From a virus: a DNA stretch of 44,597 nt. Position 1 is the stretch's first letter. Each line of letters starts with the position of its first letter. The translations under genes and the position numbers were made by a program. The stretch lies in IMG/VR virus record IMGVR_UViG_3300000970_000003. The stretch is one strand, 5' to 3'. This document shows positions 4,689 to 44,597 of the stretch, piece by piece. The notes beneath the pieces are model-generated. The model ran no database searches. It saw nothing but the letters and a program-made list of their open reading frames with translations, and was not told the origin of the DNA.

Positions 4689-4900
4689 TTCACTCGGCCC
4701 ATATTTATATCATAGCCATAACCTAGCTTTCTGACCTCGGATTGAACGTAGCTTATAATATAGAAATCAATCTCCTGCTCCGTTTTGCCAAGCTCATGCA
4801 TAGTGCGAGCTACTTTATTAGCTTTAATCATTGCCTCTTTCGCAGTCTTATCTATTTTTCTTCTTATAAAGTAAAACTTCATCCACCTAAAAAAATTCAT
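4685..4900 (-). CDS. hypothetical protein
   Basis: 71-aa basic ORF, overlap-coupled to both neighbours. Confidence 0.55.
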   Translation of the reverse strand: MNFFRWMKFYFIRRKIDKTAKEAMIKANKVARTMHELGKTEQEIDFYIISYVQSEVRKLGYGYDINMGRVK

Positions 4901-5112
4901 AAATATATCTCCACTTCGACGTTTATTTCCATTTGCATATTTATTTTAAAAGGATTTCCACAGGATTCGCACTCGATGACTTCATCCTGAGTGGAATCCC
5001 AATAAGCTCCTACTGATTTTGAGCCGTTACCCTCTTTAAATCCAGCTTCGTAGTGCAGGTATTCATCGCAGTGGGGGCATCTGAAAGGGATCTCAAAAAA
5101 GGCTTTATTCAT
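4897..5112 (-). CDS. zinc-ribbon protein
   Basis: CPHCDEY and CESCGNPF form a four-Cys ribbon. Coupled to its neighbours. Confidence 0.6.
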   Translation of the reverse strand: MNKAFFEIPFRCPHCDEYLHYEAGFKEGNGSKSVGAYWDSTQDEVIECESCGNPFKINMQMEINVEVEIYL

Positions 5113-5410: not shown

Positions 5411-6015
5411 TTAGACTCCTCTATTCTAGTGCTTGAATAAGTAACAGTGTAGTCAGGCTCTACCTCAAATTTAAGATCACATTCATGGCACTCAATTTCT
5501 GTGCTGTTCCCATCGTGGCAATACTCAAAAGAATCAGTAAATTGGTGTTCGCACCAGGGACATACTATGTCGTCTTTAAATTTGTAGTCCCACTCGTCAT
5601 AGTCTTCGTAATTAACCCTAGCCAATGCAGCAGCCTTCTTTTCAGCCATTTCTCTGTCGTGACAAGGGTGGCATTGAGATCCTCCTTTAACTCCAAACAT
5701 CGACCTCTCTTTTACATCATCTCTATTTATCCCGCAGGTTAAGCAGTTGTCGTGTTCCCTGCATACTTTAAATAGAGACCAGCCAACTTCAACGCCTAAG
5801 CACTTAGGGCACTCAAGGTTTTGAACCCATACACCGTCTTCACAATCAACTCGATACCCGTCACGCCTTATAAATGTGAAGTCAGCATTTTTTTCATCTA
5901 TAAATGACCGATCATCGTTTTCTTTTTTTCTAAAGTAGGTTGTTAAACCGCACATTACATAATCCATGTCAGGCTCTAGCCAGGACTCGGTCATCAATAT
6001 TCTTTTTTGCTTCAT
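5407..6015 (-). CDS. cysteine-rich protein with multiple zinc fingers
   Basis: Successive CxxC/CxxH pairs: CPKC, CLTC, CHPCH, CPWCEH and CHECD. Confidence 0.6.
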   Translation of the reverse strand: MKQKRILMTESWLEPDMDYVMCGLTTYFRKKENDDRSFIDEKNADFTFIRRDGYRVDCEDGVWVQNLECPKCLGVEVGWSLFKVCREHDNCLTCGINRDDVKERSMFGVKGGSQCHPCHDREMAEKKAAALARVNYEDYDEWDYKFKDDIVCPWCEHQFTDSFEYCHDGNSTEIECHECDLKFEVEPDYTVTYSSTRIEESK

Positions 6016-7229
6016 ATTGGCTCCTTCGCAACGTGCTTTTCTATAAGGCTGGTTACTTGATCAAATAGCCAGGTTTGTAATCCCCTACTGTGATCTGGGT
6101 AGCCCGTTTTTAGGTGGGCATACTCCTCTATCATTGTAGACACTAAATACTTTGTCCCCATTTCAAAACACCTTTTAGAAATGACCATGCTATTTGTATT
6201 GTGGTCTGCAAAGGCCATTGTACTAGTCCCTAAATCATTTACAGTGCGTATATTGTAAGCTTTTAAGTCTGGGTACACTTTGGATACTATATCCACAGCT
6301 TTTTCTAGCTGCATCTGCTCTACAGGTTCTAACTTCACATCAACTAGATTTCTCTTAGCCTGCTTATTGGTCTCTTTTGAAAAATACTCCACCGCTGACT
6401 TGTTGAATAGCTCGCTGTTGTTTGTAAAAGCCGCCTCTGCTACGGACATGAACTCAGGGCTCGGCTCAAAATCCTCCCACTCTAGGTGGCTGTACGAAAT
6501 ACCACCCTCAAAGCTTTCATCCTTATCTGCTTTTAATAACGAGTCCAAATACACCGGGTCTTTGATCATAGACGTTCTTTTGCCTGCGAATGATTCAGCT
6601 GCGTAAGCCTCTTTTAAGGTTCTATCCTCGGTAAGCTCTTGGCTTTTTATAATGTTGTATGTGAAAAGCGAAGGAGGTTTAAGCTCGTGTATCCGAACAC
6701 CTCGGTAGTACATATAGTTTGAAGGCTTGTCATAAATTTCTATCTCAGGGGTTTTTAGAATAGCATCGTTATGCTTAGGATCGAAAACTATAGAATCTTT
6801 TTTAGTGTACTCCTCTATGAAAGCCTCGCCCTTTACAATGATATAAGTCATCCCCTCTTTAGGTTCGGGCTTCACTGGCAGCACGTTTACTGATCCGCCC
6901 TCGTCTAGCGTGTTACAATAGATTTCACGAAACGCCTGCCACATCTTCCAGTTTTTGCCTAGCTCGGTGGTGTAGGATAGGTCCCTGCCGTTCATCGTGA
7001 TCATATCGAAATCAACACCGCGAACATTATGCTTTCGGGTTTCAAAAAGGTATGTGCTACCCCCGGAATAGATTTCCATTTGCTGTTTTTCTCTAGCTAG
7101 GATTGCTGTGGCATATTTTAAGCCTGTGCCGAAATACCCTATAGCGTCGTTTTTGTTTTTAACTGATACCCCGAAGGCCGTAACCCCTGTGATATCTATC
7201 TCGCCCTTGTTTTCAAAGACTACATACAT
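6012..7229 (-). CDS. hypothetical protein, 405 aa
   Basis: First gene after the 7253-7279 motif. It has an N-terminal GYFGTGLKYA glycine motif and a C-terminal EEYAHLKTGYPDHSRG. No function assigned. Confidence 0.7.
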   Translation of the reverse strand: MYVVFENKGEIDITGVTAFGVSVKNKNDAIGYFGTGLKYATAILAREKQQMEIYSGGSTYLFETRKHNVRGVDFDMITMNGRDLSYTTELGKNWKMWQAFREIYCNTLDEGGSVNVLPVKPEPKEGMTYIIVKGEAFIEEYTKKDSIVFDPKHNDAILKTPEIEIYDKPSNYMYYRGVRIHELKPPSLFTYNIIKSQELTEDRTLKEAYAAESFAGKRTSMIKDPVYLDSLLKADKDESFEGGISYSHLEWEDFEPSPEFMSVAEAAFTNNSELFNKSAVEYFSKETNKQAKRNLVDVKLEPVEQMQLEKAVDIVSKVYPDLKAYNIRTVNDLGTSTMAFADHNTNSMVISKRCFEMGTKYLVSTMIEEYAHLKTGYPDHSRGLQTWLFDQVTSLIEKHVAKEPI

Positions 7230-7252: not shown

Positions 7253-7279
7253 TAGGTATATACTCCGGTATATATAATA
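7253..7279 (-). promoter_or_regulatory. bipartite palindromic motif (GGTATATACT-cc-GGTATATATA on the plus strand); candidate promoter or operator
   Basis: One of six related intergenic copies. It sits 25 nt upstream of the 405-aa gene start. Confidence 0.5.
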
Positions 7280-8977: not shown

Positions 8978-9202
8978 TTAAATGACTCCAGTGTATTGGC
9001 ATAGATAGTAGATACCTATTCCGGTTAAAAACATTGCTAAAGATCCAATCAAAAAACCCACAGCTAAAAACAGTAAGCATTTTTGATAAAAGTAATCCGC
9101 TAATTCGCTTATATTCTTCTCCAACACTTCCCCATAGGTTGAGCTCACAAAAAACTTAATTTTGTAAACGAAGTCGTGTTTAACCCTGGTTATAGCTTTC
9201 AA
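8978..9202 (-). CDS. small membrane protein
   Basis: 74 aa with the hydrophobic stretch LLFLAVGFLIGSLAMFLTGIGIYYL. Confidence 0.5.
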   Translation of the reverse strand: MKAITRVKHDFVYKIKFFVSSTYGEVLEKNISELADYFYQKCLLFLAVGFLIGSLAMFLTGIGIYYLCQYTGVI

Positions 9203-9455
9203 AAAGAGCCTCCTCTGCGTATTTCTCTATTGATCTGTATTCTTCTATATCCGCCGCGAGAATGTGGTTTGTGTATTCCTTGTCATCTCTGCCGAATATT
9301 TTAAAATTGAATTCATCCAGGTAGTGCATAGGAACCCCTCGGTTTCCATCCCTGTCCGCTCCGTAGTCGGACTCAAATTCTATATTGCCCTCGGCTATTA
9401 CCTGAACGGTGCCGATACCATCTACCTGCCAAAAAAACTCGGTTTCTATATTCAT
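9180..9455 (-). CDS. hypothetical protein
   Basis: 91-aa ORF in the operon. Confidence 0.55.
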   Translation of the reverse strand: MNIETEFFWQVDGIGTVQVIAEGNIEFESDYGADRDGNRGVPMHYLDEFNFKIFGRDDKEYTNHILAADIEEYRSIEKYAEEALFESYNQG

Positions 9456-9688
9456 GCCGAAAGCCTCTCTTCTTCGTCTTCTAGCTCTATAGCCAGCTCT
9501 TGAATATCGTCTTCTAGGCTATGTATGAGGTCTACTATACCTTCGAGCATTGGCTTTATACGCATGATCGCTACGGTATTGTCGTAATCAAGTTGAGGTA
9601 CGCTCTGCAGGTCTACCAAAGACCTTTCTAAAGCGGATATTGCTGATTCTTTTCTTTTTATTTCGTATTTGATTTGTGTTTTCGTCAT
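9452..9688 (-). CDS. hypothetical coiled-coil protein
   Basis: 78-aa ORF. It is the first gene after the double motif and carries the conserved leader plus a GGAG Shine-Dalgarno. Confidence 0.6.
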   Translation of the reverse strand: MTKTQIKYEIKRKESAISALERSLVDLQSVPQLDYDNTVAIMRIKPMLEGIVDLIHSLEDDIQELAIELEDEEERLSA

Positions 9689-9716
9689 CCCGTTCTCCTT
9701 CGTATTGCTCGTATTG

Positions 9717-9807
9717 GGTATATACTTAGTATATACTACGGTATGTATAAAGTAAAGGAATAAACCAAGACTGTATTATACTGGTATATACTCAGGTATG
9801 TACTATT
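9717..9807 (-). promoter_or_regulatory. two clusters of the palindromic motif (9718-9749 and 9783-9804); candidate promoter or operator
   Basis: Plus strand reads GGTATATACT, AGTATATACT, GGTATGTATA, then GGTATATACT-ca-GGTATGTACT. On the minus strand a perfect TATAAT lies between the clusters (GTATAATACAG). Confidence 0.55.
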
Positions 9808-10306
9808 AGGAAGACTTTTTTTGCTCTTTTTCTGCGATGAAAGCAGCCAGCTCCTCAGGGGTCATTTTGTTTATTTTAGCTGCAAATTCTGTGTCCGGGT
9901 TTAAAGGCATCCCCTCAGCCCCGGTAACTTCTAATTTGCTTGTCTGGCTCCACCCAGCCTGGCAGCTCAGCCAATATTGAGTCATACGCGCACTCTTTCC
10001 AGATGTAGCCATTTTATAAGCAACCCCGGCTACAGCGTTATTAGCGTGGATCTTACCCTTCAGGACCGCCTCACGAAGTCTAGTGTCCTCGCTTAGCCTT
10101 CTAACAAAAGTAGCCCTGCTCATTCCTAAGGCGACCGCCATATCATCTTGTGAGAAACCGAAACCTGAAAGAGTTGATACAGTATTGTAGTCTTTCTCCT
10201 CAATCTTAATTTCATAGCTGCCTTTAGGCCTATGCGGTGGATTCTTAGTAACCTTTTTAGTAGCTTTTTTAGATGTCTTTTTTTTTGCTTTCTTCTTAGT
10301 CGTCAT
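9806..10306 (-). CDS. HTH DNA-binding protein, terminase small-subunit-like
   Basis: Lys-rich N-terminus, HTH-like MAVALGMSRATFVRRL, then KGKIHANNAVAGVAYKMATSGKSARMTQYWL, which resembles phage TerS proteins from memory. Start set at MTTKKK after GAGGA. Confidence 0.45.
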   Translation of the reverse strand: MTTKKKAKKKTSKKATKKVTKNPPHRPKGSYEIKIEEKDYNTVSTLSGFGFSQDDMAVALGMSRATFVRRLSEDTRLREAVLKGKIHANNAVAGVAYKMATSGKSARMTQYWLSCQAGWSQTSKLEVTGAEGMPLNPDTEFAAKINKMTPEELAAFIAEKEQKKSS

Positions 10307-10340
10307 CGTATTCCTCATGCTCATTTTATAACCAAATACA

Positions 10341-10369
10341 CTTATAGTATACACCGGGTATGGGTACTT
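10341..10369 (-). promoter_or_regulatory. degenerate copy of the bipartite motif
   Basis: Plus strand reads TAGTATACAC-cg-GGTATGGGTACT, about 39 nt upstream of the HTH gene start. Confidence 0.35.
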
Positions 10370-10469
10370 TATGAGGCAAAATGGCTGTTTGTCCAGAGGC
10401 ATGGAATACACACTGTTTATACACACTTTTGTAGGGCTTTAGGGTATGAATTTTGTATCTGCCTAATTA

Positions 10470-10679: not shown

Positions 10680-10855
10680 CGGTCGACTCCTAAAAGAGTG
10701 TTGGATAGCGTAGACAAGGCTGTCTCGGCCCCCTTCCATTATCCGTCCTGGAACTAGAAGCGCGTCCAACTCCTTAATTATTGCGCAGGATACTTTTCAG
10801 CACAAGGTTTTCTAGGTTAGCCTTTCCTCACATCAAAAATAGGAGGATGAGAAAT

Positions 10856-12112
10856 ATGCAAACGATAAAAATTAGATGTGAGTCTGCCCAGACCATACCA
10901 TTTCAAAAGCTAAAGCCTTTCCAGGGGGAGCTTAAATCTCTATCAAAAGAGAATTATGAAAAGCTTAGGGGCTCTATAATTGAGTACGGCTTCACAAGTC
11001 CCATGAATGTCTGGAGAGAGTCCGATGATAACTGGTATACACTAGACGGCCACCAACGCTGCAGGGTTTTAGAAAAAATGGGAGAAGAGGGGTTTAATAT
11101 CCCAGAGATTCCGGTTTCATTTATTCACGCTGAATCGATAGATGAGGCAAAAAGGATCCTAATCACTCACGCATCTCAATACGGTAAAGTTGAGAAACAA
11201 GGCTTATATGAGTTTGCTATAGAAAACGGCATAGAGCCTGATGAGTTATTTAGTATTGCTCACTTTCCAGAAATCAACGCCGAGGCTTTTAAAACAGAAT
11301 TTTTTATAGACCACGACACCAACGCAGCAAAAGAGGAGATTGAAGACGATATCCCTACGGTATCAGACACTCGAGCGAAGATGGGCGATATATGGCAGCT
11401 AGGAGACCACAGGGTTATGTGTGGGGACGCCACGGACGTTGCTATGGTAGAAGAGCTCATGAATGGAGAGAAGGCAGCCCTATGCCTTACAGACCCTCCC
11501 TATAATGTAGATTATGAAGGCAAAACCAAAGATGCCCTAAAAATTGAAAACGACAAAAAAGAAGACAGTCAGTTTTTTGATTTCTTGCGCGACTCTTTCG
11601 TTAACTATTTCACGGTTATGCACACAGGCGCTCCTATTTACATCTTCCACGCAGATTCTGAAGGCTACAACTTTAGGGGAGCTATGAAAGAGGCGGGATT
11701 TAAAATGGCTCAATGCCTTATTTGGGTTAAAAACCAAATGGTAATGGGTCGTCAAGACTATCACTGGAAACACGAGCCTATCCTCTACGGATGGAAAGAA
11801 GGATCAGCCCATTCTTGGCATACGGATAGAAAACAGACTACGGTCTGGGAGTTTGACAGGCCTCAAAGGAACGCTGAGCACCCTACAATGAAGCCTATTC
11901 ATTTACTGGAATATCCAATCGGAAACTCTAGCTCGGTAGGATCTCTTGTGATTGATTTTTTTGGAGGCTCTGGATCTACATTGATCGCTTGTGAAAAGCT
12001 GAATAGAAAATGTTATACGATGGAGCTCGATCCTAGATACGTTGATGTAATATTGGCCAGATATGAGAAGTACGCTGATAAAGAGGCTGTGCTTTTAAAT
12101 CCTGAAGGCTAG
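10856..12112 (+). CDS. ParB/Srx-like N-terminal domain fused to a beta-class N6-adenine (or N4-cytosine) DNA methyltransferase
   Basis: ParB-type LDGHQRCR; methyltransferase motif IV LTDPPYN precedes motif I DFFGGSGST. Start set at MQTIKI, 9 nt after AGGAGG. This is the only credible plus-strand gene. Confidence 0.85.
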   Translation: MQTIKIRCESAQTIPFQKLKPFQGELKSLSKENYEKLRGSIIEYGFTSPMNVWRESDDNWYTLDGHQRCRVLEKMGEEGFNIPEIPVSFIHAESIDEAKRILITHASQYGKVEKQGLYEFAIENGIEPDELFSIAHFPEINAEAFKTEFFIDHDTNAAKEEIEDDIPTVSDTRAKMGDIWQLGDHRVMCGDATDVAMVEELMNGEKAALCLTDPPYNVDYEGKTKDALKIENDKKEDSQFFDFLRDSFVNYFTVMHTGAPIYIFHADSEGYNFRGAMKEAGFKMAQCLIWVKNQMVMGRQDYHWKHEPILYGWKEGSAHSWHTDRKQTTVWEFDRPQRNAEHPTMKPIHLLEYPIGNSSSVGSLVIDFFGGSGSTLIACEKLNRKCYTMELDPRYVDVILARYEKYADKEAVLLNPEG

Positions 12113-14013: not shown

Positions 14014-14637
14014 TTAAAAAGGTGGAGCAAAGTTATCTTGTGGAGGCTCGGAGGCTTTTTGCTTCTCTTCGAAATCCTGCCCGGCTTTTATGATCTTTTC
14101 TACGCTCTCCTTGTGGTGATCGTAAGTGCTTTGATCCATAGCATAATCACCCTGCCCATTTGCTTCACACCAGGCGTTATGCGGAATCCCGTGGCGGGTT
14201 CTGCTAAAAACTACGAAGTGATCCTTGTGGGCCGCTGTGAAAATAGGAGCTGAAGATTGCTGAAGCTGCCAAGCATCACACCTCGCTGTACAAGCGAATC
14301 CGTATGGTCCTGCGTGAGGCTTGTTTTTTTTGTAAGCCGTCGTGAGGCCAGAGCCATCGCATACCGGACAAACCTTGCCTGCAGCTAAATCCGCCTGAGC
14401 TCTTTCCAGCTCCATCAATTTTTTATGCTGGAGTATAGGAATGCCGTATTTGTCAAAATCCTTCATGATAGGCAAGCCACGCTGGTTGAAAATGATCTGG
14501 CTGCAGACGTTGTAAAACTCTTCGTTGTCCAGACCCTCGTAGCGTTTGAAGAGCTCTTTTTGGAATTCCGGCCCTACCTCGCCTTTAAAATTATTTTGAA
14601 TCCTGCCAATGCAATTTTTGAAGTGGGTTATATCCAT
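14014..14637 (-). CDS. replication accessory protein, possibly a helicase-loader-like protein with a zinc finger
   Basis: 207 aa, TAATG-coupled to the initiator gene, with CPVCDGSG. The G39P-like assignment rests on context and weak recollection only. Confidence 0.35.
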   Translation of the reverse strand: MDITHFKNCIGRIQNNFKGEVGPEFQKELFKRYEGLDNEEFYNVCSQIIFNQRGLPIMKDFDKYGIPILQHKKLMELERAQADLAAGKVCPVCDGSGLTTAYKKNKPHAGPYGFACTARCDAWQLQQSSAPIFTAAHKDHFVVFSRTRHGIPHNAWCEANGQGDYAMDQSTYDHHKESVEKIIKAGQDFEEKQKASEPPQDNFAPPF

Positions 14638-15686
14638 TACGCCTCCGGTAACCTATATTTTTCTGCAAGCATTCTCTTTGCTTCCTGTTTTTTTCGTTCT
14701 AGCTCAGTCATGCCATCTTTTTCAGCCTTAATCCTGTCCTCTTCCAAAAGCCTATCCAGCTCTGCAAAATTTTCATGGCTCTTCTGGGCTACCTCTACTT
14801 GCTTGTCAGCCTCGATTACAGCGGTTTGAGTTATCACTCGTCCTGTGTGACTAAAGCCCTCGATTGCCTTAATTTTTAACTCAAATATTTTTAAAGAGTG
14901 GTGACCCCACACGTTGCGCGAGTCAGGCATAGCAAAATAGATTTCAAGTAATTTTTTCAATTTCTCTTCGCTAAAATCTTTTAAAAGCCTCTTTATCCCG
15001 CCTCTATCAGATCCGGTCGGAGTTGGAGATTTATTTTCAGGACCGCCGTAATGCATACCCCAGAGCTCGCAATATTTGGCTATACAGCGGGAGACAGCAG
15101 TTCCCTTGGATTTATCCTCAGATTTTTTAACGGGAGAGGTAGGGTTTTCTGCCACAACCAATTTTGCCTCTTCTTCAGGCTTAGGATTAGAAGGAGGATT
15201 AACCACAGCTATCGAACGCTTTTTAGCGGTCGATGAATTTACTTTCTTTTTTACTTTACTTTCATTTACTTTACTTTCCTTTGTGGCCGTGTTTCTGACT
15301 GTTTGTACTGTAAGTATTTGTTTTTGTTGAAGACTGATTATGGCACTCCATACGCACTTACGTTGCAGTCCCATAGCACTATGTAGGCGCTTGATAGTCA
15401 CTCGAATAGCACTTGGTAGGCACTCGGTAGTCACCTCCCCCTCACTCGATACTCTCTCGATAGTCTGAGAGATGTCTTGCCGAGGGAATTCATATAAAAA
15501 GTAGATGAAAACAATCTTCTCCATGCTGGATAAAGAAGCAAAAATATGATCAGAAAATAAATCAGTTTTAGTAAGATGGTAATGAAATTTGAGCTTTTTA
15601 TTTTTAGCTACATCTCGTCTGTAGTAGTTTTTTAAATCGATTATTTCTATATCAATTACATCGTCTTCATGGATATCTGTATACAT
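14637..15686 (-). CDS. putative replication initiator protein
   Basis: 349 aa with an N-terminal winged-helix-like region, a low-complexity K/S/P linker and a C-terminal domain. The gene contains an iteron array and AT-rich repeats. Confidence 0.55.
   Translation of the reverse strand: MYTDIHEDDVIDIEIIDLKNYYRRDVAKNKKLKFHYHLTKTDLFSDHIFASLSSMEKIVFIYFLYEFPRQDISQTIERVSSEGEVTTECLPSAIRVTIKRLHSAMGLQRKCVWSAIISLQQKQILTVQTVRNTATKESKVNESKVKKKVNSSTAKKRSIAVVNPPSNPKPEEEAKLVVAENPTSPVKKSEDKSKGTAVSRCIAKYCELWGMHYGGPENKSPTPTGSDRGGIKRLLKDFSEEKLKKLLEIYFAMPDSRNVWGHHSLKIFELKIKAIEGFSHTGRVITQTAVIEADKQVEVAQKSHENFAELDRLLEEDRIKAEKDGMTELERKKQEAKRMLAEKYRLPEA
15237..15285. repeat. AT-rich tandem repeats (TTTACTTTACTTTC x2 plus a partial copy); candidate DNA unwinding element
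   Basis: Read directly: tttactttcttttttactttactttcatttactttactttcc, inside the linker-coding part of the initiator gene. Confidence 0.5.
15340..15471. repeat. about 9-12 tandem 11-bp iterons (plus-strand consensus TAGNCACTNNN); candidate origin of replication
   Basis: Successive 11-mers are atggcactcca, tacgcacttac, gttgcagtccc, atagcactatg, taggcgcttga, tagtcactcga, atagcacttgg, taggcactcgg, tagtcacctcc, ccctcactcga, tactctctcga, tagtctgagag. An 11-bp period cannot come from an amino-acid repeat. Confidence 0.65.
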
Positions 15687-15974: not shown

Positions 15975-16010
15975 TGTCCCCCCTTTGGAACGGTTAAAAG
16001 GTTCGACTTC

Positions 16011-16065
16011 TACCTATAGGGGGTTGCGCGCGGGATAGAATCCTGGCATAAATTTCCTATAGGTA
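16011..16065. promoter_or_regulatory. 10-bp inverted repeat TACCTATAGG ... CCTATAGGTA with a 35-bp spacer
   Basis: Read directly. Each arm contains the 8-bp palindrome CCTATAGG, and the spacer has a GC-rich core (gcgcgcggg). It sits in the 111-bp gap upstream of the replication genes. Confidence 0.45.
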
Positions 16066-16085
16066 AACAGTCCCAAACTCGATAC

Positions 16086-16292
16086 TTATTGATTAAGGCT
16101 TCGCTTGTCGAGGCCTTTTTCTTTTTTGCCGGATATTGCTTCACCCTCAAGATGATCACAGTAAATCGCAGCCTGCTCTATAGCTGTATACAATTCAGGC
16201 AAACATGAAGTCGTCCTTCGGCTTTTTATTGTCCTTATCATTGCTATTAGTATTTTCATCTCTTCCCTTAGATACTTCGCCTCGTCTTCCAT
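16086..16292 (-). CDS. hypothetical protein
   Basis: 68-aa ORF. Its start lies inside the 3' end of the upstream ORF. Confidence 0.45.
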   Translation of the reverse strand: MEDEAKYLREEMKILIAMIRTIKSRRTTSCLPELYTAIEQAAIYCDHLEGEAISGKKEKGLDKRSLNQ

Positions 16293-16467
16293 CGATCCCC
16301 CCGATCACTTCTCCGTTAAAAAACACCCTTCTCACAGGTATGCTTTTCTTATTGTAGATTTCGCCCACAAATCTTTTCAAGCCGTCGATCTCAACGAGAG
16401 GCTCGATATATGTGACAAGCAAAGTTTTACTCCCTCTATTTACATAGAAAACATCCCCTTTTTTCAT
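16195..16467 (-). CDS. small hypothetical protein, paralog-like to 13541..13771
   Basis: Start set at MKKGDVFYV (TGATG overlap with the recombinase stop). It shares a ...LLVTYI... core with the 13541 ORF. Confidence 0.45.
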   Translation of the reverse strand: MKKGDVFYVNRGSKTLLVTYIEPLVEIDGLKRFVGEIYNKKSIPVRRVFFNGEVIGGIDGRRGEVSKGRDENTNSNDKDNKKPKDDFMFA

Positions 16468-17351
16468 CACGCACACCTCATATAGTTTCTAAGGTCATCA
16501 GCGTCTTCTTTCTCGATCATATTGCAGAGTATTTCGTATTGGCTCATTGTAAGCTTTTTAGTTGAGTCCAAATTAAAGTGGCAAAGCAAAAGCTCTCTAG
16601 CCTCATCCTGAGTTAGATCCGAAGCCCCTATGATTGTAAAAAGCCTTTTTATTTGATCCTGAGAAACGGGAGCGTGGTTCATACGCTCTTCTTCTTTTGG
16701 ATATGTTTTAGCAGGCTTTTCTGGTTCAGCGTCCGGTTGTGGGGGAGCGTCTTGATCCGTTGTAGTTGTTCTCTCTACAGGCTTCGTGTCTTTTACATCT
16801 CTAGGCTCATCATCCTCATTCAGGATTTCATTCATATCGCCCATTTCAGTAAAAGGAGTTTTAAAGCTAACCTCTTTCATAGTGTCCAGCTCGGTTTCAT
16901 CTGTAATAGCTAGTCCGCATATAGAAAGCGTAACCCTTCTTTTTGCCTTGGTTTCACACTTCATTATAGCGTTTGCCAAGTTTGCACCGCTCATACCCTT
17001 ACAAGGCACTACAGCTATAGACTCGTCTGTTCTACCGTTTGGCATAGTAGCTAGGGCAGTGAAGGTTATAAGGCCAGCGTCGGTGTCTATACTCTTCTCT
17101 GTAACCTTTACCGAAACACCCCATACTTTTCTAAGCTGATCCGTACAGCTTTTATTAGCATATAAGACTAGCTTCCCCTGCATTCTGATAAAATCAAAAG
17201 GCTTTGAAATGTGGCTTATTTTTAGCTGATCACATAAAGCTATTTGAAACTTTCCAGCTTCAGCCTCGGTCAACTTACTATAGTCGCCAGCAAGTATTTT
17301 GTTTTCAATCTCTTCGCTCAACGCTGGGAGATTGTCTCTCATCTCATTCAT
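16467..17351 (-). CDS. single-strand annealing protein (Rad52/Erf/RecT-superfamily recombinase)
   Basis: AIMKCETKAKRRVTLSICGL resembles the conserved C-terminal core motif of phage annealases such as Erf. It is paired with an upstream exonuclease and has an acidic C-terminal tail. Confidence 0.6.
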   Translation of the reverse strand: MNEMRDNLPALSEEIENKILAGDYSKLTEAEAGKFQIALCDQLKISHISKPFDFIRMQGKLVLYANKSCTDQLRKVWGVSVKVTEKSIDTDAGLITFTALATMPNGRTDESIAVVPCKGMSGANLANAIMKCETKAKRRVTLSICGLAITDETELDTMKEVSFKTPFTEMGDMNEILNEDDEPRDVKDTKPVERTTTTDQDAPPQPDAEPEKPAKTYPKEEERMNHAPVSQDQIKRLFTIIGASDLTQDEARELLLCHFNLDSTKKLTMSQYEILCNMIEKEDADDLRNYMRCA

Positions 17352-18210
17352 TATCGTCCTCCTTTGGCTTCATCCAGTGGTATGGAATAGCCTCTATAAT
17401 TTTCTCTTCATATCCAGGCCACACGCCTGTCTCTTTGCATTTTTTGTAAGTCTCCAGCAGAGGCATATACTTAGGCCTTCCACACTCTGAGTAAAAATCA
17501 TCGTGCAGCTGGAATTGATTAGGGCAATAAGGAGGTTCTTTTTCTTGAGCTAAAATCATAAAACCCCTCATGTGCTCACCCGTTGCTGAAAATATTGTAT
17601 GGGCATAAAAATCAGCTTGAACGTCATAGTCAAAATTTGAAATAGATTTTATAAATGATTCTTTAGAGGCGTCAGCTGTTGTCTTATAATCCCAGAAAAA
17701 CATTTTTTTATAGTTGCACCAGTCTAACCTACACTTAGTTTTCACTCCGTTGATTTCACCAAAAAAAGTTATTTCAGGCTCTCCTGATTTTGTAAGAGCT
17801 TGGTAGTAGCTATGCTCCCGGATAACCCTGGTCATCGCTATAGCCTCGCGCCAATCCTTACGCTTCATTATGATTTTGCCTTCGTGCTTTTCGGCGTGTT
17901 CTTTATGCTTTGCTTTTCCAGCCTTTGATTGCTTGCTTACCCCGTGCAGCTCCCTAGCGTAGAGCTCGAAAACTAGGTGGGGCTCTAACACAAAGGTGTG
18001 TAAAAAGTTACCAAAAATTAAGGAATCGGTGGGGTCTTTAGGGTTTTCTAGCGCATATTTAAAATGTGCCGGGCTCTTGCGCATCTTCATGAGCTGTGAG
18101 CGTCCAATGTATTCTGTTATTTCGTGGTAAACATCGTTAGGGACATTTCGGTATGCCCCTTTAGGTATGCCCGTCTCTAGTAGAGAAGGGTCCCATTCTT
18201 TTATTTTCAT
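17344..18210 (-). CDS. PD-(D/E)xK exonuclease (RecE/YqaJ/Cas4-like)
   Basis: RLDWCNYKKMFFWDYKT gives D...D-x-K, followed by QADFYAH (the QxxxY motif). Confidence 0.7.
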   Translation of the reverse strand: MKIKEWDPSLLETGIPKGAYRNVPNDVYHEITEYIGRSQLMKMRKSPAHFKYALENPKDPTDSLIFGNFLHTFVLEPHLVFELYARELHGVSKQSKAGKAKHKEHAEKHEGKIIMKRKDWREAIAMTRVIREHSYYQALTKSGEPEITFFGEINGVKTKCRLDWCNYKKMFFWDYKTTADASKESFIKSISNFDYDVQADFYAHTIFSATGEHMRGFMILAQEKEPPYCPNQFQLHDDFYSECGRPKYMPLLETYKKCKETGVWPGYEEKIIEAIPYHWMKPKEDDNE

Positions 18211-18238: not shown

Positions 18239-18260
18239 GTAGGGATATGGTATATACTTA
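18239..18260 (-). promoter_or_regulatory. palindromic motif copy (GGTATATACT at 18249-18258)
   Basis: It overlaps the stop of the last late gene and sits 38 nt upstream of the exonuclease start. The conserved leader follows. Confidence 0.5.
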
Positions 18261-35010: not shown

Positions 35011-36561
35011 CTAGTTTACCACCGCTCCTGTTGTTTGACGTTGAGTTTGCCTTAGTAGATCCGCAATCCCCTCTTTCACGCCTTTTTGAACCGCAGGACC
35101 GACTTGGTCTGTTGCTGTACCTTCAGGCACGTTGATAGTGATTGGAGCCGTAACATTTTGGTTTGTAGTGTTCTGAGTGCCCCCTGCTGCCGCGGTCGAT
35201 CTTACCGGAACAGATGAGGCGCTAGATAACCCTAAAGTCTGTGATAGCGTAGAGCTCTCAGGATTGACGAGAGGGTTCGCAATATCCGCCCCTATACCTT
35301 TCAAAGCTTCAATCGCTAACTTCGTACTGCCGCCCGACAGTGCGCCCAGAGCCCCTGCTATACCTCTGAGTACAGAAAAGAATATTCTAAACGGCTGTAG
35401 CATTAAAGCCACCATACGCTTTACAAGGTTAGGCATAGCCATGAACTTTCCAGATAGAAAATCAAAAAACTTCGTGAACTCGGCCACCATAACCCCTGTT
35501 ACAGAGTCCCTACCCTGGAAATAGCCTATAATATCATCAAGCACCAAGATAACGAGGGCTGCGATAGCTATCACTTTTAGGAAAGGAAGGGCTAGAACAG
35601 CGAATGATTTGAGTCCGGTAATAGATAAAAGGGTAAGTGCTGATTTAATAGCCAACATAGACTTTATGAATAAGCCAGAAAGTAAAAGTAAAGGGCCTAA
35701 GGCTGCAGCAAAACCAGCCACAACTATAATAATCCTCTTCATTCCTGGGGTTAGCAGGTCCAAGGCCTCGATAGCTTTTTCTAAAAACCCCACCACCTTG
35801 TTTGCAAAAGGGAGGAGTATCTCACCGAATGAAACCGCTAGGTCATTCACCCGTGCACGAAGCCTTCTTGTTCTGTTTGCAAAGCTTTCTGATGTTCTAG
35901 CGTAATCGCCTATAGCATTTTTTGATTGTTTCTGCGCCAGCGTAAGAGTCGCATAGGCTTTAGCCTGTCTTTCAGTTTCAAAAGTAAGTCCTTGAGACCT
36001 TTGTATTTGGAGCTGTTTTTTAACATCCTCCTCAAGAATCGAGATCCCAAGAGATTTGACTGATTCTCTCTCACCAAGAAGTGCCTTTGTAAGAGCCTTA
36101 GATGCACCTTCGGCACCTCCTGAAAAGTTAGTAAAAGAAGCCAGGTCAACTGCGAGTTGGTTAACTTTATCCGATAGATCGAGGGCTGAGTCTTGAGTAA
36201 ATCCGAAGCCAGTGAGGAGATCGCCTGTATCTCCCAATAGTTGCTTAGAAGCCACGCGAGATAAGCCAAAGCTTTTTGATAGGTTCCTAGCCGTTGCATC
36301 TGCTGAATCCGATATATTTCCAAATACTGTGGCAAACTTAGAATTAGTTTCTTCTGCATCGGAGGCCGCCTTAATAGTTGCTCCGCCTATAGCGAGTAAA
36401 GGAAGAGTAACCCTTAGGCTCAAACTCTTCCCCATTTTGATAGCTTTATCGGCAGCTCGGTCTAAGCCTTTTTCAATATTGTTTATAGAGGCGTCGAGTT
36501 TCTTCAAACCCTCGTCATCAACATCGAACCCCCACTTAGTAACAAACTCCCTTAAATTCAT
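35011..36561 (-). CDS. tail tape measure protein
   Basis: 516 aa, helical with central hydrophobic segments, between the chaperone genes and the baseplate genes. Confidence 0.8.
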   Translation of the reverse strand: MNLREFVTKWGFDVDDEGLKKLDASINNIEKGLDRAADKAIKMGKSLSLRVTLPLLAIGGATIKAASDAEETNSKFATVFGNISDSADATARNLSKSFGLSRVASKQLLGDTGDLLTGFGFTQDSALDLSDKVNQLAVDLASFTNFSGGAEGASKALTKALLGERESVKSLGISILEEDVKKQLQIQRSQGLTFETERQAKAYATLTLAQKQSKNAIGDYARTSESFANRTRRLRARVNDLAVSFGEILLPFANKVVGFLEKAIEALDLLTPGMKRIIIVVAGFAAALGPLLLLSGLFIKSMLAIKSALTLLSITGLKSFAVLALPFLKVIAIAALVILVLDDIIGYFQGRDSVTGVMVAEFTKFFDFLSGKFMAMPNLVKRMVALMLQPFRIFFSVLRGIAGALGALSGGSTKLAIEALKGIGADIANPLVNPESSTLSQTLGLSSASSVPVRSTAAAGGTQNTTNQNVTAPITINVPEGTATDQVGPAVQKGVKEGIADLLRQTQRQTTGAVVN

Positions 36562-42717: not shown

Positions 42718-43920
42718 TTATTTAGTTAAAGTAAAGCCTAATGGTTGTTTCCACGCCTCAGAATCCTTCTTCATGTTAGCAACGCGAGCTGCTTCAGGAG
42801 TCGTGATCTTAGCGTCTTCTTCATCTGTCTTAGTTTTGTTTGATAAAGCCTTTTTGATGTCGTCATCAGACTTAGTCTCTTTAGAAGTTTCTGACATTAC
42901 GTGGTCAAATCTGCCTTCAATGTAAGCTTCTGACTTACCTTCTAGCTCAATACCATCGCATTTTTTAACTAAAACGGCTTTCATGATTTCAAGGTTCGAC
43001 ATTTCGTCTAGCTTAACCTCATCTTTTTCATCGAAAACAGGAGTTACTTTTGATAGGAAAGCAGTCTTCGCAGCTACTAGAGCGTTGATTTCCTTTTCAT
43101 CCATCTTAGCTTCTTCAGCTTTCTTAAGATCAGAAGTTAAAGCATCGATTTTAGCTTGCGCCGCATCTTCCTTTTTCTTCATCTCTTCTTCCATGTCCTT
43201 TTCTTTCTTCTTCATGCCATCTTCATGGGCTTTCAGGATCGCAGCTTGAATTGGAGCAGCTACAGAGCTGTCTACTTTAAACTCGATTCCATCCAGCTTG
43301 ATTGTAGCTGTATTCATTGTTTTGTCCTCCCGTTGGGGTTTGTTATTATTTTCATCGTCAAAGTGACCATCATCCAATACTGCATCGCCTGCGTCTAGGT
43401 GTAATTTAACCTTTGGACCAGCTCTGCCCCTGTCGACCACTGCCAGGTGATTATATACAATGTTTTTTTGGATAGCATCGTACTTTTCACCTTCTGGAGT
43501 CTCGCCAGGTGTGAAGTCCATATCACAAACATATCCACAGCTCACCTGTGAAATACCTTTTTGCTCAATTTCTTCAATCATGTCTTCGTGGGATATAGTG
43601 ACAGAGGTTTCAACGAACTCGTCTGTCTTTTTAACTATATCTGAAGTGAAGCCAACCGTGAGAGCCTTAGCGTTTTTTGAATTCACCATTTCTTTAGGAT
43701 GACGGTTAGTTACCGGAACCCCTGCGAGTGAATCTAAAGATGCTTTGCTAAAAACTTCCTGTGGGGGACGATACTCCCTCACGATTGTGCCATCTGCTTT
43801 TAAATATTTGAAAACGCCTGTTCTGGTAGCGTACACCGGGGCTTTTAAAAAGCCATTGTCTAATTTTTTAGCCTTACCTAGAGGTCTAAAATCAAATCGT
43901 GCGAATCTCGTTTTACTCAT
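42718..43920 (-). CDS. prohead protease/scaffold protein (DUF2213-like N-terminus with a K/E-rich coiled-coil C-terminus)
   Basis: NGFLKAPVYATRTGVFKYL...VREYRPPQEVF...LAGVPVTNRHP fits DUF2213 as I recall it. The C-terminal half is a charged coiled coil. Confidence 0.6.
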   Translation of the reverse strand: MSKTRFARFDFRPLGKAKKLDNGFLKAPVYATRTGVFKYLKADGTIVREYRPPQEVFSKASLDSLAGVPVTNRHPKEMVNSKNAKALTVGFTSDIVKKTDEFVETSVTISHEDMIEEIEQKGISQVSCGYVCDMDFTPGETPEGEKYDAIQKNIVYNHLAVVDRGRAGPKVKLHLDAGDAVLDDGHFDDENNNKPQREDKTMNTATIKLDGIEFKVDSSVAAPIQAAILKAHEDGMKKKEKDMEEEMKKKEDAAQAKIDALTSDLKKAEEAKMDEKEINALVAAKTAFLSKVTPVFDEKDEVKLDEMSNLEIMKAVLVKKCDGIELEGKSEAYIEGRFDHVMSETSKETKSDDDIKKALSNKTKTDEEDAKITTPEAARVANMKKDSEAWKQPLGFTLTK

Positions 43921-44597
43921 CTAATAAATCCTCTATGATCGGTTCAGCATAACATCTACAGTTGATCGGTTCTCCTGGGTTTCCATCCGACGGGGGTTTA
44001 TCCCAGCTGAATATTTTACCTTCCCGATCCTGGTGTGATGACCTCACCCTTTCATCTAAGCTTGTCCTCCATCGATACCTAGTGACACCGACTTCCTGTT
44101 GTCTGAGCTGGTTTAATTGACCGTTAAACTTATTAACTTGGTCTCTCGCAATCAACTCTGCCCTTCGTTTACTCACTCCGGATCTAGCTGCTATATTCTT
44201 AGCAATATCCTTCGCGGTCAAACCCTGACGTGCTCCACGAAATACAACTTCTTGAATCTCGTTGAAGTATCTATCATCGACTGACTTGATCAAGGCTACG
44301 TTCTGCTCCACGAAATTGTCAATCTGCGACTTTAACCATGCCTCCCTTGAAAAAGGATCCACCGAAAGAGCCGTTTTAAATACTCCTCTAAATTGTGACA
44401 GATTATGAGCATTCACCGCAAGTCCAACATTTCTGAGTATGGCCCGAAGGTCAGTGTCTCCGACCAGGCCTAAGAACCTAATCTTGATCCCGTTTATGAT
44501 TAAAAATACATCATCTGAAAGGCTATCGTTGGTGGGGAGCAATTGTCTCTGCTCCCTTAGACTACCTTCCAGTGTTGGGATGAAGTCGTTTTCAACT
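43913..44597 (-). CDS. MuF-like head morphogenesis protein, C-terminal part (N-terminus at 234..1 across the junction)
   Basis: YRWRTSLDERVRSSHQDREGKIF...NCRCY is the Phage_Mu_F/SPP1 gp7 signature. The reading frame stays open to the window end. Confidence 0.85.
   Translation of the reverse strand, partial: VENDFIPTLEGSLREQRQLLPTNDSLSDDVFLIINGIKIRFLGLVGDTDLRAILRNVGLAVNAHNLSQFRGVFKTALSVDPFSREAWLKSQIDNFVEQNVALIKSVDDRYFNEIQEVVFRGARQGLTAKDIAKNIAARSGVSKRRAELIARDQVNKFNGQLNQLRQQEVGVTRYRWRTSLDERVRSSHQDREGKIFSWDKPPSDGNPGEPINCRCYAEPIIEDLLDE
44549..44597. repeat. second copy of the 49-bp terminal repeat
   Basis: Identical to 1..49. Confidence 0.95.

Follow-up and report, generated by a model that had tools for sequence, protein, structure and literature searches.

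A candidate replication origin made of 11-bp direct repeats inside a putative initiator gene of an uncultured phage

Introduction

In phages lambda and SPP1, the replication origin lies inside the gene of the initiator. The iterons of lambda and its AT-rich tract are located inside gene O, and additional iterons in the O genes of Stx phages lengthen the encoded protein (PMC7466680), and gp38 of SPP1 binds direct repeats of oriL inside gene 38, beside an AT-rich unwinding element (PMC6316719). Direct repeats of 11 bp are found in two further systems, namely parC of R1, which contains two sets of five tandem repeats (PMC2241845), and the bind locus of pMV158, in which they are recognized by the replication initiator RepB (PMC4753449; PMC9943647), a rolling-circle initiator (PMC9943647). 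Here, an array of 12 contiguous 11-bp direct repeats is described that lies inside the gene of a candidate replication initiator in the IMG/VR virus record IMGVR_UViG_3300000970_000003. The whole stretch of 44,597 nt that was analysed is called the window, and all coordinates other than those of SPP1 are plus-strand positions of that stretch. A literature search found neither this protein family nor 11-bp iterons of phage theta origins described, which is weak evidence of novelty given incomplete coverage.

Results

An 11-bp repeat laid over the coding sequence

The array and the gene that contains it are:

15340-15471, no strand assigned: array of 12 contiguous 11-bp direct repeats (candidate iterons); basis: periodicity, synonymous shuffles, unit table and rare codons

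14637-15686, minus strand: gene for a candidate replication initiator (origin-binding protein) of 349 amino acids (aa); basis: open reading frame (ORF), weak PHROG matches, structural model and synteny

The original prediction, an initial reading of this DNA, had proposed about twelve consecutive 11-mers at this position, and this was borne out by autocorrelation and by Tandem Repeats Finder (TRF). The 12 units follow one another in register and without indels, and TRF and a repeat finder both reported period 11. On the gene strand, the units are, in order, CTCTCAGACTA, TCGAGAGAGTA, TCGAGTGAGGG, GGAGGTGACTA, CCGAGTGCCTA, CCAAGTGCTAT, TCGAGTGACTA, TCAAGCGCCTA, CATAGTGCTAT, GGGACTGCAAC, GTAAGTGCGTA and TGGAGTGCCAT. 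They are about 55-80% identical to one another, with the exact register kept, and approximate TCGAGTGnCTA with the core A-G-T-G-(A/C). Unit position 7 is G in 12/12 units, the total information amounts to about 9 bits, and the best-conserved core of the array extends from 15373 to 15438. The motif TAG-N-CACT, which had been ascribed to most units, is recognizable in a looser form, with CACT in phase in 7/12 units and one base off in two more, and the exact sequence TAGNCACT occurs in only two units (15395 and 15417).

Within the array, the fraction of matching positions was 0.51 at lag 11, 0.46 at lag 22 and 0.60 at lag 33, versus about 0.25 at other lags. When the protein is held fixed, the expected identity is already 0.45 at lag 33 and 0.30-0.32 at lag 11. 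At each of the three lags, the observed value was reached by 0/20,000 synonymous-codon resamplings (protein fixed), by 0/20,000 synonymous permutations and by 0/20,000 codon-order shuffles; the comparison with codon-shuffled versions had been named beforehand as the refuting test. When lags 4-44 were scanned over the whole window, the maxima for lags 11, 22, 33 and 44 were all located at the array, and the z values for lag 11 (6.3) and lag 33 (6.5) were the top two among all lags scanned.

The array recruits rare codons (AGT four times, TCG, CGA, CGC and CTG), and its mean log relative synonymous codon usage is in the lowest 0.8% of the 45-codon windows in the genes of the phage. The repeat recurs in all three codon phases, and AGTG with the invariant G encodes S-A, V-T or C-L. 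Since 11 and 3 are coprime, the reading frame is the same again after three units, which results in a 33-bp super-period and in an 11-residue echo in the protein (xSA / RVT / KCL: PSAIRVTIKRL / HSAMGLQRKCV / WSAI). The synonymous shuffles together with the disfavoured codons therefore indicate that the repeat is real and acts at the DNA level, as had been proposed, and its existence as a feature is regarded as virtually certain. A scan of the window with a position-weight matrix revealed no second cluster of the iteron motif, and therefore no analogue of oriR.

A further tandem repeat of period 11 (TTCTTCATGTC, 4.8 copies, 70% matches in TRF) is present at 43175-43227, inside a 400-aa gene (42718-43920). 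It is far weaker than the array at 15340-15471 and is absent from the top lag-11 windows.

A/T-rich segments beside the array

Three segments adjoin the array or lie near it inside the same gene:

15237-15285, no strand assigned: A/T-rich tandem repeat, candidate DNA-unwinding element; basis: TRF, repeat finder, stability scan and counterparts in relatives

15286-15339, no strand assigned: spacer between the array and the A/T-rich repeats, 54 bp, 65% A+T

15558-15657, no strand assigned: second A/T-rich stretch of low stability, alternative candidate unwinding site; basis: stability scan

The A/T-rich tandem block had been predicted at about 55 bp from the array, and it was confirmed with a gap of 54 bp. 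At 15237-15282, TRF reported period 15 with 3.3 copies and 85% matches; the sub-period is 5. The gene-strand unit is GAAAGTAAAGTAAAT, present in about three copies, and the block has 78% A+T and, with 82% pyrimidine on the plus strand, a strong purine/pyrimidine strand asymmetry. It encodes aa 134-150 (KESKVNESKVKKKVNSS), at the start of the segment aa 135-192 that has a predicted local distance difference test score (pLDDT) below 50; the prediction that it encodes the low-complexity linker, the start of which is KESKVNESKVKKKV, was thus correct. The second stretch lies across the array from this block, in the 5' part of the initiator gene, and is the third least-stable 100-bp window of the genome.

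The encoded protein

The 349-aa ORF was confirmed. Its product has weak matches to two PHROG families: phrog_678, labelled 'replication initiation O-like' (E=2.4e-5), and phrog_186, labelled 'DnaD-like helicase loader' (E=3.2e-4). An AlphaFold2 (AF2) model with a mean pLDDT of 72 predicts an N-terminal winged helix (about aa 10-130), a disordered linker rich in K, E, S and P (aa 135-192), a C-terminal domain made up of helices (aa 197-281) and long helices at the termini. The predicted winged-helix elements are a helix (54-69), a low-confidence hairpin (75-89), a strand (93-97), two helices (98-105 and 109-121) and a wing (125-130). The array encodes aa 72-116, that is, the low-confidence hairpin, the beta strand, helix 2 and most of the putative recognition helix, and the hairpin is an insertion relative to homologs.

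A Foldseek search of the BFVD viral models retrieved two-domain phage proteins labelled 'replication protein', 'DnaD', 'replication initiator' and 'replisome organizer', with E values down to 9e-7, and a profile search of PDB sequences gave nothing significant. The Foldseek and weak PHROG matches, the synteny and a DnaB-type helicase gene next to the homolog in one relative (L013, below) lend indirect support to the designation as a replication initiator, which had been given to the ORF at the outset.

Arrays in relatives of the initiator gene

A word-indexed search of 5.8 billion proteins matched the 349-aa protein only to itself and thus yielded no close relative. With the family alignment, a word-indexed search retrieved 13 proteins. 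An exhaustive HMMER search retrieved 261 remote homologs (E<=0.001), and the relatives are 20-33% identical to the window protein. The DNA and the protein of the window gene had no match among isolate phages, tblastn with two family members found no relative among sequenced isolate phages, and a related-locus search with single family proteins returned almost nothing.

For the family comparison (A1 family), 12 lineages were used, that is, the window and the DNA of 11 relatives (L003-L013), together with a protein alignment of 16 members, window included; the position compared in the relatives was nt ~150-300 of the gene. An 11-bp array is present at the same gene position in 7/12 lineages, window included (six at p<=0.02, one at 0.06). 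The arrays in the relatives, with the number of shuffles that reached the observed value, are:

L008: unit GTCAACnCGAG, about 13 copies, TRF score 119; 0/3000 synonymous permutations

L010: unit AAGnACTGAAC; 0/2000 shuffles

L005: unit AAnnnnnTAGT; 2/3000 shuffles

L009: unit GAATnAGTnC; 10/2000 shuffles

L007: unit GTCAnnnnnGT; 63/3000 shuffles

L003, marginal: unit GAGTCAn; 182/3000 synonymous permutations, 4/3000 codon-order shuffles

The unit sequences differ between lineages and the period and gene position are kept, a combination which fits pairs of initiators and iterons and neither a structural by-product nor a neutral minisatellite. In most relatives (clearly in L003, L005, L006 and L008-L012), the array, or the place where it would be expected, is followed downstream by a 15-bp A-rich repeat. 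Where the array has expanded, the protein contains an insertion, of about 13 aa in the window protein and, in P0060, of 22 aa composed of 11-aa repeats.

In 9/11 relative loci, the initiator homolog is followed by an overlapping or adjacent gene of about 185-245 aa. The mutual similarity of these partner genes is weak, and they belong to PHROG families without known function. In L013, a gene for a DnaB-like helicase directly follows the initiator homolog, and in L008 the contig ends within the next gene. The family phrog_186 is matched by 8/16 aligned members, window protein included (best E=8.8e-10), and the PHROG matches to O-like and DnaD-like initiators are stronger in the relatives than in the window protein. 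The Pfam domains Phg_2220_C and DnaD/DnaB_2 were found neither in the window protein nor in its 15 aligned relatives.

A shared A-rich 20-mer in other initiator genes

The A-rich 20-mer AATAGAATAGAAAAGAATAG is identical in three of the relatives (L005, L009 and L011). It occurs in 24 IMG/VR contigs (L014-L037), encodes NRIEKNRIEKN, and is found in 21/24 contigs at the linker position of an ORF of 208-333 aa. These ORFs represent several families, with the PHROG labels replication initiation protein, DnaD-like loader and replisome organizer, and the 20-mer is far better conserved than the coding sequence around it. A significant 11-bp array is present upstream of the A-rich element in 13/21 of these ORFs, directly adjacent to it in several; examples are GACTCACTGAA (six copies), CGACTATTCGA (five copies), GAACCACGGTT (four copies) and AGTCAAnnnnn (eight copies). 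The 20-mer may be a shared unwinding element or a host-factor site.

Neighbouring genes

The initiator gene is part of an early module that is encoded entirely on the minus strand and comprises, in addition:

17344-18210, minus strand: PDDEXK exonuclease; basis: ORF list and family matches

16467-17351, minus strand: RecT-like protein; basis: ORF list and family matches

between the RecT-like gene and the initiator gene, minus strand: two small ORFs, 93 and 95 aa; basis: ORF list

14014-14637, minus strand: partner gene, 207 aa, in the lambda-P position, its start overlapping the initiator stop; basis: ORF

Genes for an HNH protein and a Holliday-junction resolvase are located further on. Judged by gene order and family matches, the initiator gene is in the lambda-O position of a lambda-like recombination and replication module. 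The 207-aa partner contains a zinc-ribbon-like motif (CxxC...C) and may recruit or load a helicase. Among the window ORFs scanned, no gene for a helicase, an integrase or partition was recognized, and no ParM, ParA, ParR or HUH Rep was detected in the window, the sole ParB-like match being the N-terminal part of a DNA methyltransferase fusion. This fusion of a ParB-like N-terminal domain and a DNA methyltransferase (10781-12112, plus strand; phrog_498, 4e-133) is the only sizeable plus-strand ORF with a family match.

The intergenic region upstream of the 95-aa ORF (15975-16194) contains the palindrome CCTATAGG twice (~16013 and ~16056) and, read on the plus strand, a G+C-rich hairpin followed by a T-run (16095-16117); these elements are a possible operator and a possible terminator. 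Scans for promoters, terminators and Rfam families around the initiator gene found nothing relevant.

The genome and its other repeats

Positions 1-49 of the window are identical to positions 44549-44597 (49 nt), and the assembly is therefore circularly closed, with a length of about 44,548 bp; it probably represents the whole genome of the phage. Assemblies of this phage were obtained from two sequencing runs (SRR2835671 and SRR2835670). Two scans of genome contigs gave no match.

The putative small-terminase (terS) gene (9806-10426) contains several short periodic repeats at 10178-10426, among them TTAGTAACCTTT in 2.3 copies at 10245-10272, and the window maxima of lags 12, 24, 13 and 38 also fall into this gene. 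These repeats, at about 10.2 kb, are a possible pac recognition site.

The motif GGTATATAC(T) / GGTATGTA is present in constant orientation at 7255-7275, 9717-9803 and 18249-18258, in three very A/T-rich intergenic regions. Two of them are located just upstream of minus-strand genes (6012-7229 and the operon of exonuclease, RecT-like protein and initiator), and the 9.7-kb cluster is flanked by 9180-9455 and the putative terS gene; the lowest stability of any 50-bp and 100-bp window of the genome is found in two of these regions. The regions are candidates for phage promoters or operators. The lag-11 window that ranks second (9641-9772) contains this motif, which is unrelated to the units at 15340-15471, and it was rejected as an iteron array.

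Discussion

A repeat that acts at the DNA level, and the period and position of which are conserved across relatives, is present inside a gene that is located between recombination genes and an overlapping partner gene. By sequence and by analogy, it is likely that the array and the A/T-rich 15-bp repeats together form the theta-type origin of the phage, inside the gene of its own recognizer, as in lambda and SPP1.

Binding, unwinding and helicase recruitment can be envisaged as follows. The winged-helix N-terminal domain of the 349-aa protein would bind the 11-bp units as direct repeats, one per helical turn, so that the bound proteins would be aligned along one face of the DNA, or would occupy 22 bp as dimers. 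They would assemble cooperatively into a nucleoprotein complex that resembles the lambda O-some, and the resulting strain would be relieved by the opening of an adjacent A/T-rich segment, most likely the strand-asymmetric 15-bp repeats 54 bp away or, alternatively, the A/T-rich stretch at 15558-15657. The C-terminal domain and the overlapping 207-aa partner would bring in the replicative helicase, which is probably that of the host because no helicase was recognized among the scanned ORFs of the window. As 11 is not a multiple of 3 and the units cycle through the three frames, the length of the array could change only in steps of 33 bp (11 aa), which would be seen as insertions in a loop of the winged helix.

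It should be noted that several observations weigh against an origin that is recognized by this protein. The assignment of the initiator draws on weak or remote similarity: the 349-aa protein matches no Pfam family at E<=0.1, Phage_rep_O included, a Foldseek search of the PDB gave no significant fold match and a list composed mostly of winged-helix regulators, and hhalign comparisons of the family profile with SPP1 G38P (probability 2.2%) and lambda O (3.8%) were not significant. Five of the 12 lineages (L004, L006, L011, L012 and L013) have no significant 11-bp array. The A/T-rich block at 15237-15285 is in the top 1-2% of the least-stable 50-bp windows and is not the genome extreme, and another DNA-binding protein could be the binder of the array. 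The cumulative GC skew, a check suggested at the outset, lends no support, as it drops almost continuously, without a turning point near 15.3 kb; with nearly all genes of the window on the same strand, the skew is uninformative in this essentially one-stranded genome and speaks neither for nor against an origin.

Among the alternative explanations, the one that survives best, itself unlikely, is that the array is a site for another protein or function, for example, a centromere of the R1 parC/ParR type, a pac site, or an operator for a regulator such as the product of the upstream 95-aa ORF. Tandem 11-bp repeats are also used in sites of PhoB-type winged-helix proteins. Arrays of 11-bp direct repeats are typical of parC/ParR (PMC2241845) and are also found in the pMV158 RepB bind locus (PMC4753449). 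However, the array tracks the initiator gene across distant relatives whatever the neighbours are, the window has no detectable ParM, ParA, ParR, integrase or HUH Rep, and the candidate pac-type repeats are located elsewhere, in the putative small-terminase gene.

It is improbable that the array is a neutral slippage minisatellite without a binding function that is tolerated in a protein loop. Its partial coincidence with the insertions in the window protein and in P0060, the low model confidence of the encoded hairpin and the variation of the copy number between lineages speak for such a minisatellite. Nevertheless, the units have diverged while their register has stayed exact and their core invariant, which makes a recent duplication unlikely, and slippage that preserves the frame would favour periods divisible by 3, not 11. 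In addition, distant lineages and other initiator families have arrays of equal period and other sequence at the same position of the gene, and the array reaches into the conserved helices 2 and 3.

The least probable explanation, with next to no weight left, is a by-product of protein structure, that is, of a helix repeat of amphipathic or hendecad (11-residue) type, in which 3.67 residues make one turn and which would give periods of about 11 and 33 nt that have no DNA-level function: coding DNA in general shows a weak 10-11-nt periodicity, and the amino acid sequence alone gives the 11-residue echo and the elevated expectations at lags 33 and 11, but the observed values at lags 11, 22 and 33 exceed all 20,000 synonymous shuffles, which largely refutes it, AGTG with its invariant G is kept at exact 11-nt spacing over three codon phases and different residues, rare codons are recruited to keep the motif, the region is predicted to form a hairpin, a strand and two helices and not one long helix, and relatives of the same fold have other unit sequences at an equal 11-bp period.

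The interpretation as an origin provides a concrete candidate origin and a candidate origin-binding protein for an uncultured phage, and it concerns an initiator family without a Pfam model. As the family comparison shows, short iterons phased by 11 bp are widespread within initiator genes and are present in SPP1 oriL as well, and therefore a simple periodicity scan of candidate initiator genes could locate origins in metagenomic phages. A putative protein-binding array over the code for the binding domain itself would also be a clean natural case of dual coding. A general, hitherto undescribed rule for phage initiator genes can be put forward tentatively, as a rather doubtful reading: short iterons spaced by exactly one helical turn (11 bp) would overlie the code for the DNA-binding domain or the linker, gain and loss of units only in steps of 33 bp (11 aa) would couple the number of sites to the length of a loop, and the array would be linked to a portable A-rich 15-bp module. 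If this rule were true, AATAGAATAGAAAAGAATAG would point to an unwinding element or host-factor site that is exchanged between initiator families.

Comparison with known systems

The array shares tandem 11-bp direct repeats with R1 parC/ParR, in which a small DNA-binding protein coats the repeats into a continuous complex. However, parC serves partition, and the array of the window is intragenic in a replication gene; with neither a partition ATPase nor ParM or ParR detected in the window, a type II partition centromere, which would have adjacent parR and parM genes and its repeats in the par promoter region, is not supported. The bind locus of pMV158 has three repeats, and its 11-bp direct repeats are, as proposed here for the window, recognized by a replication initiator, but that protein is a rolling-circle initiator, and no HUH Rep was detected in the window.

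The analogy with lambda O and SPP1 gene 38, which the original prediction had drawn, is apt. In lambda, iterons and an AT-rich tract likewise occupy the central part of the initiator gene, a partner gene comes next (P, which loads the host DnaB), and the surrounding module likewise consists of exonuclease and annealing protein, then O and P. The lengthening of the protein by array expansions in the family of the window protein resembles the effect of extra iterons in the O genes of Stx phages. The differences are that lambda gene O has four annotated 18-bp iterons spaced by 20, 24 and 23 bp, that is, by about two turns, in contrast to 12 direct repeats at 11 bp in the window, that the lambda iterons are inverted repeats, and that the window protein does not match Pfam Phage_rep_O.

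The likeness to SPP1 (L041, X97918) is found at several levels. In both phages, direct repeats together with an AT-rich element are located inside the gene of the established or putative origin-binding protein, both proteins are composed of a winged-helix-like N-terminal domain, a low-complexity linker and a helical C-terminal domain, both match phrog_186 (G38P at 1.2e-20), and the next gene overlaps the initiator stop codon. In SPP1 gene 38, TRF reported a period-11 array of 4.6 copies, A[AC]GACAC recurs at 35952, 35963 and 35974 (region 35940-36030), an exact 11-bp spacing, and an A-rich 9-bp tandem repeat (AACAATGAT, 3.6 copies) directly follows the period-11 units. SPP1 differs in that its 3-4 units or so are located in linker-coding DNA, whereas the 12 units of the window overlie the code of a folded winged helix, and in that its A-rich repeat is immediately adjacent and not 54 bp away. 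G38P carries PF09524 (Phg_2220_C), which the window protein lacks, and SPP1 encodes its own helicase (G40P, with the loader G39P), whereas none was recognized among the window ORFs scanned. SPP1 also has a second origin, oriR, and the window has no second array; the SPP1 octamer AAAGACAC is found again at 4822 and 4902 (4822-4909), about 13 kb away, where oriR is expected.

The phasing by one helical turn had been regarded as exceptional. This view did not hold, since SPP1 oriL has exact 11-bp spacing and many other initiator genes are alike in this respect; judged by these genes, one-turn phasing is a shared property of this class of origins and not an oddity. The window feature is thus a candidate for an element that works like SPP1 oriL and lambda ori, yet its protein cannot be assigned to either of the two protein families. 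It differs from both models in that its units are strictly contiguous and in phase, number 12 (3-4 in SPP1) and overlie the code for a folded, predicted DNA-binding domain. An origin inside the initiator gene is known from lambda and SPP1, and what is added here is a well-supported candidate origin in an initiator family not characterized before.

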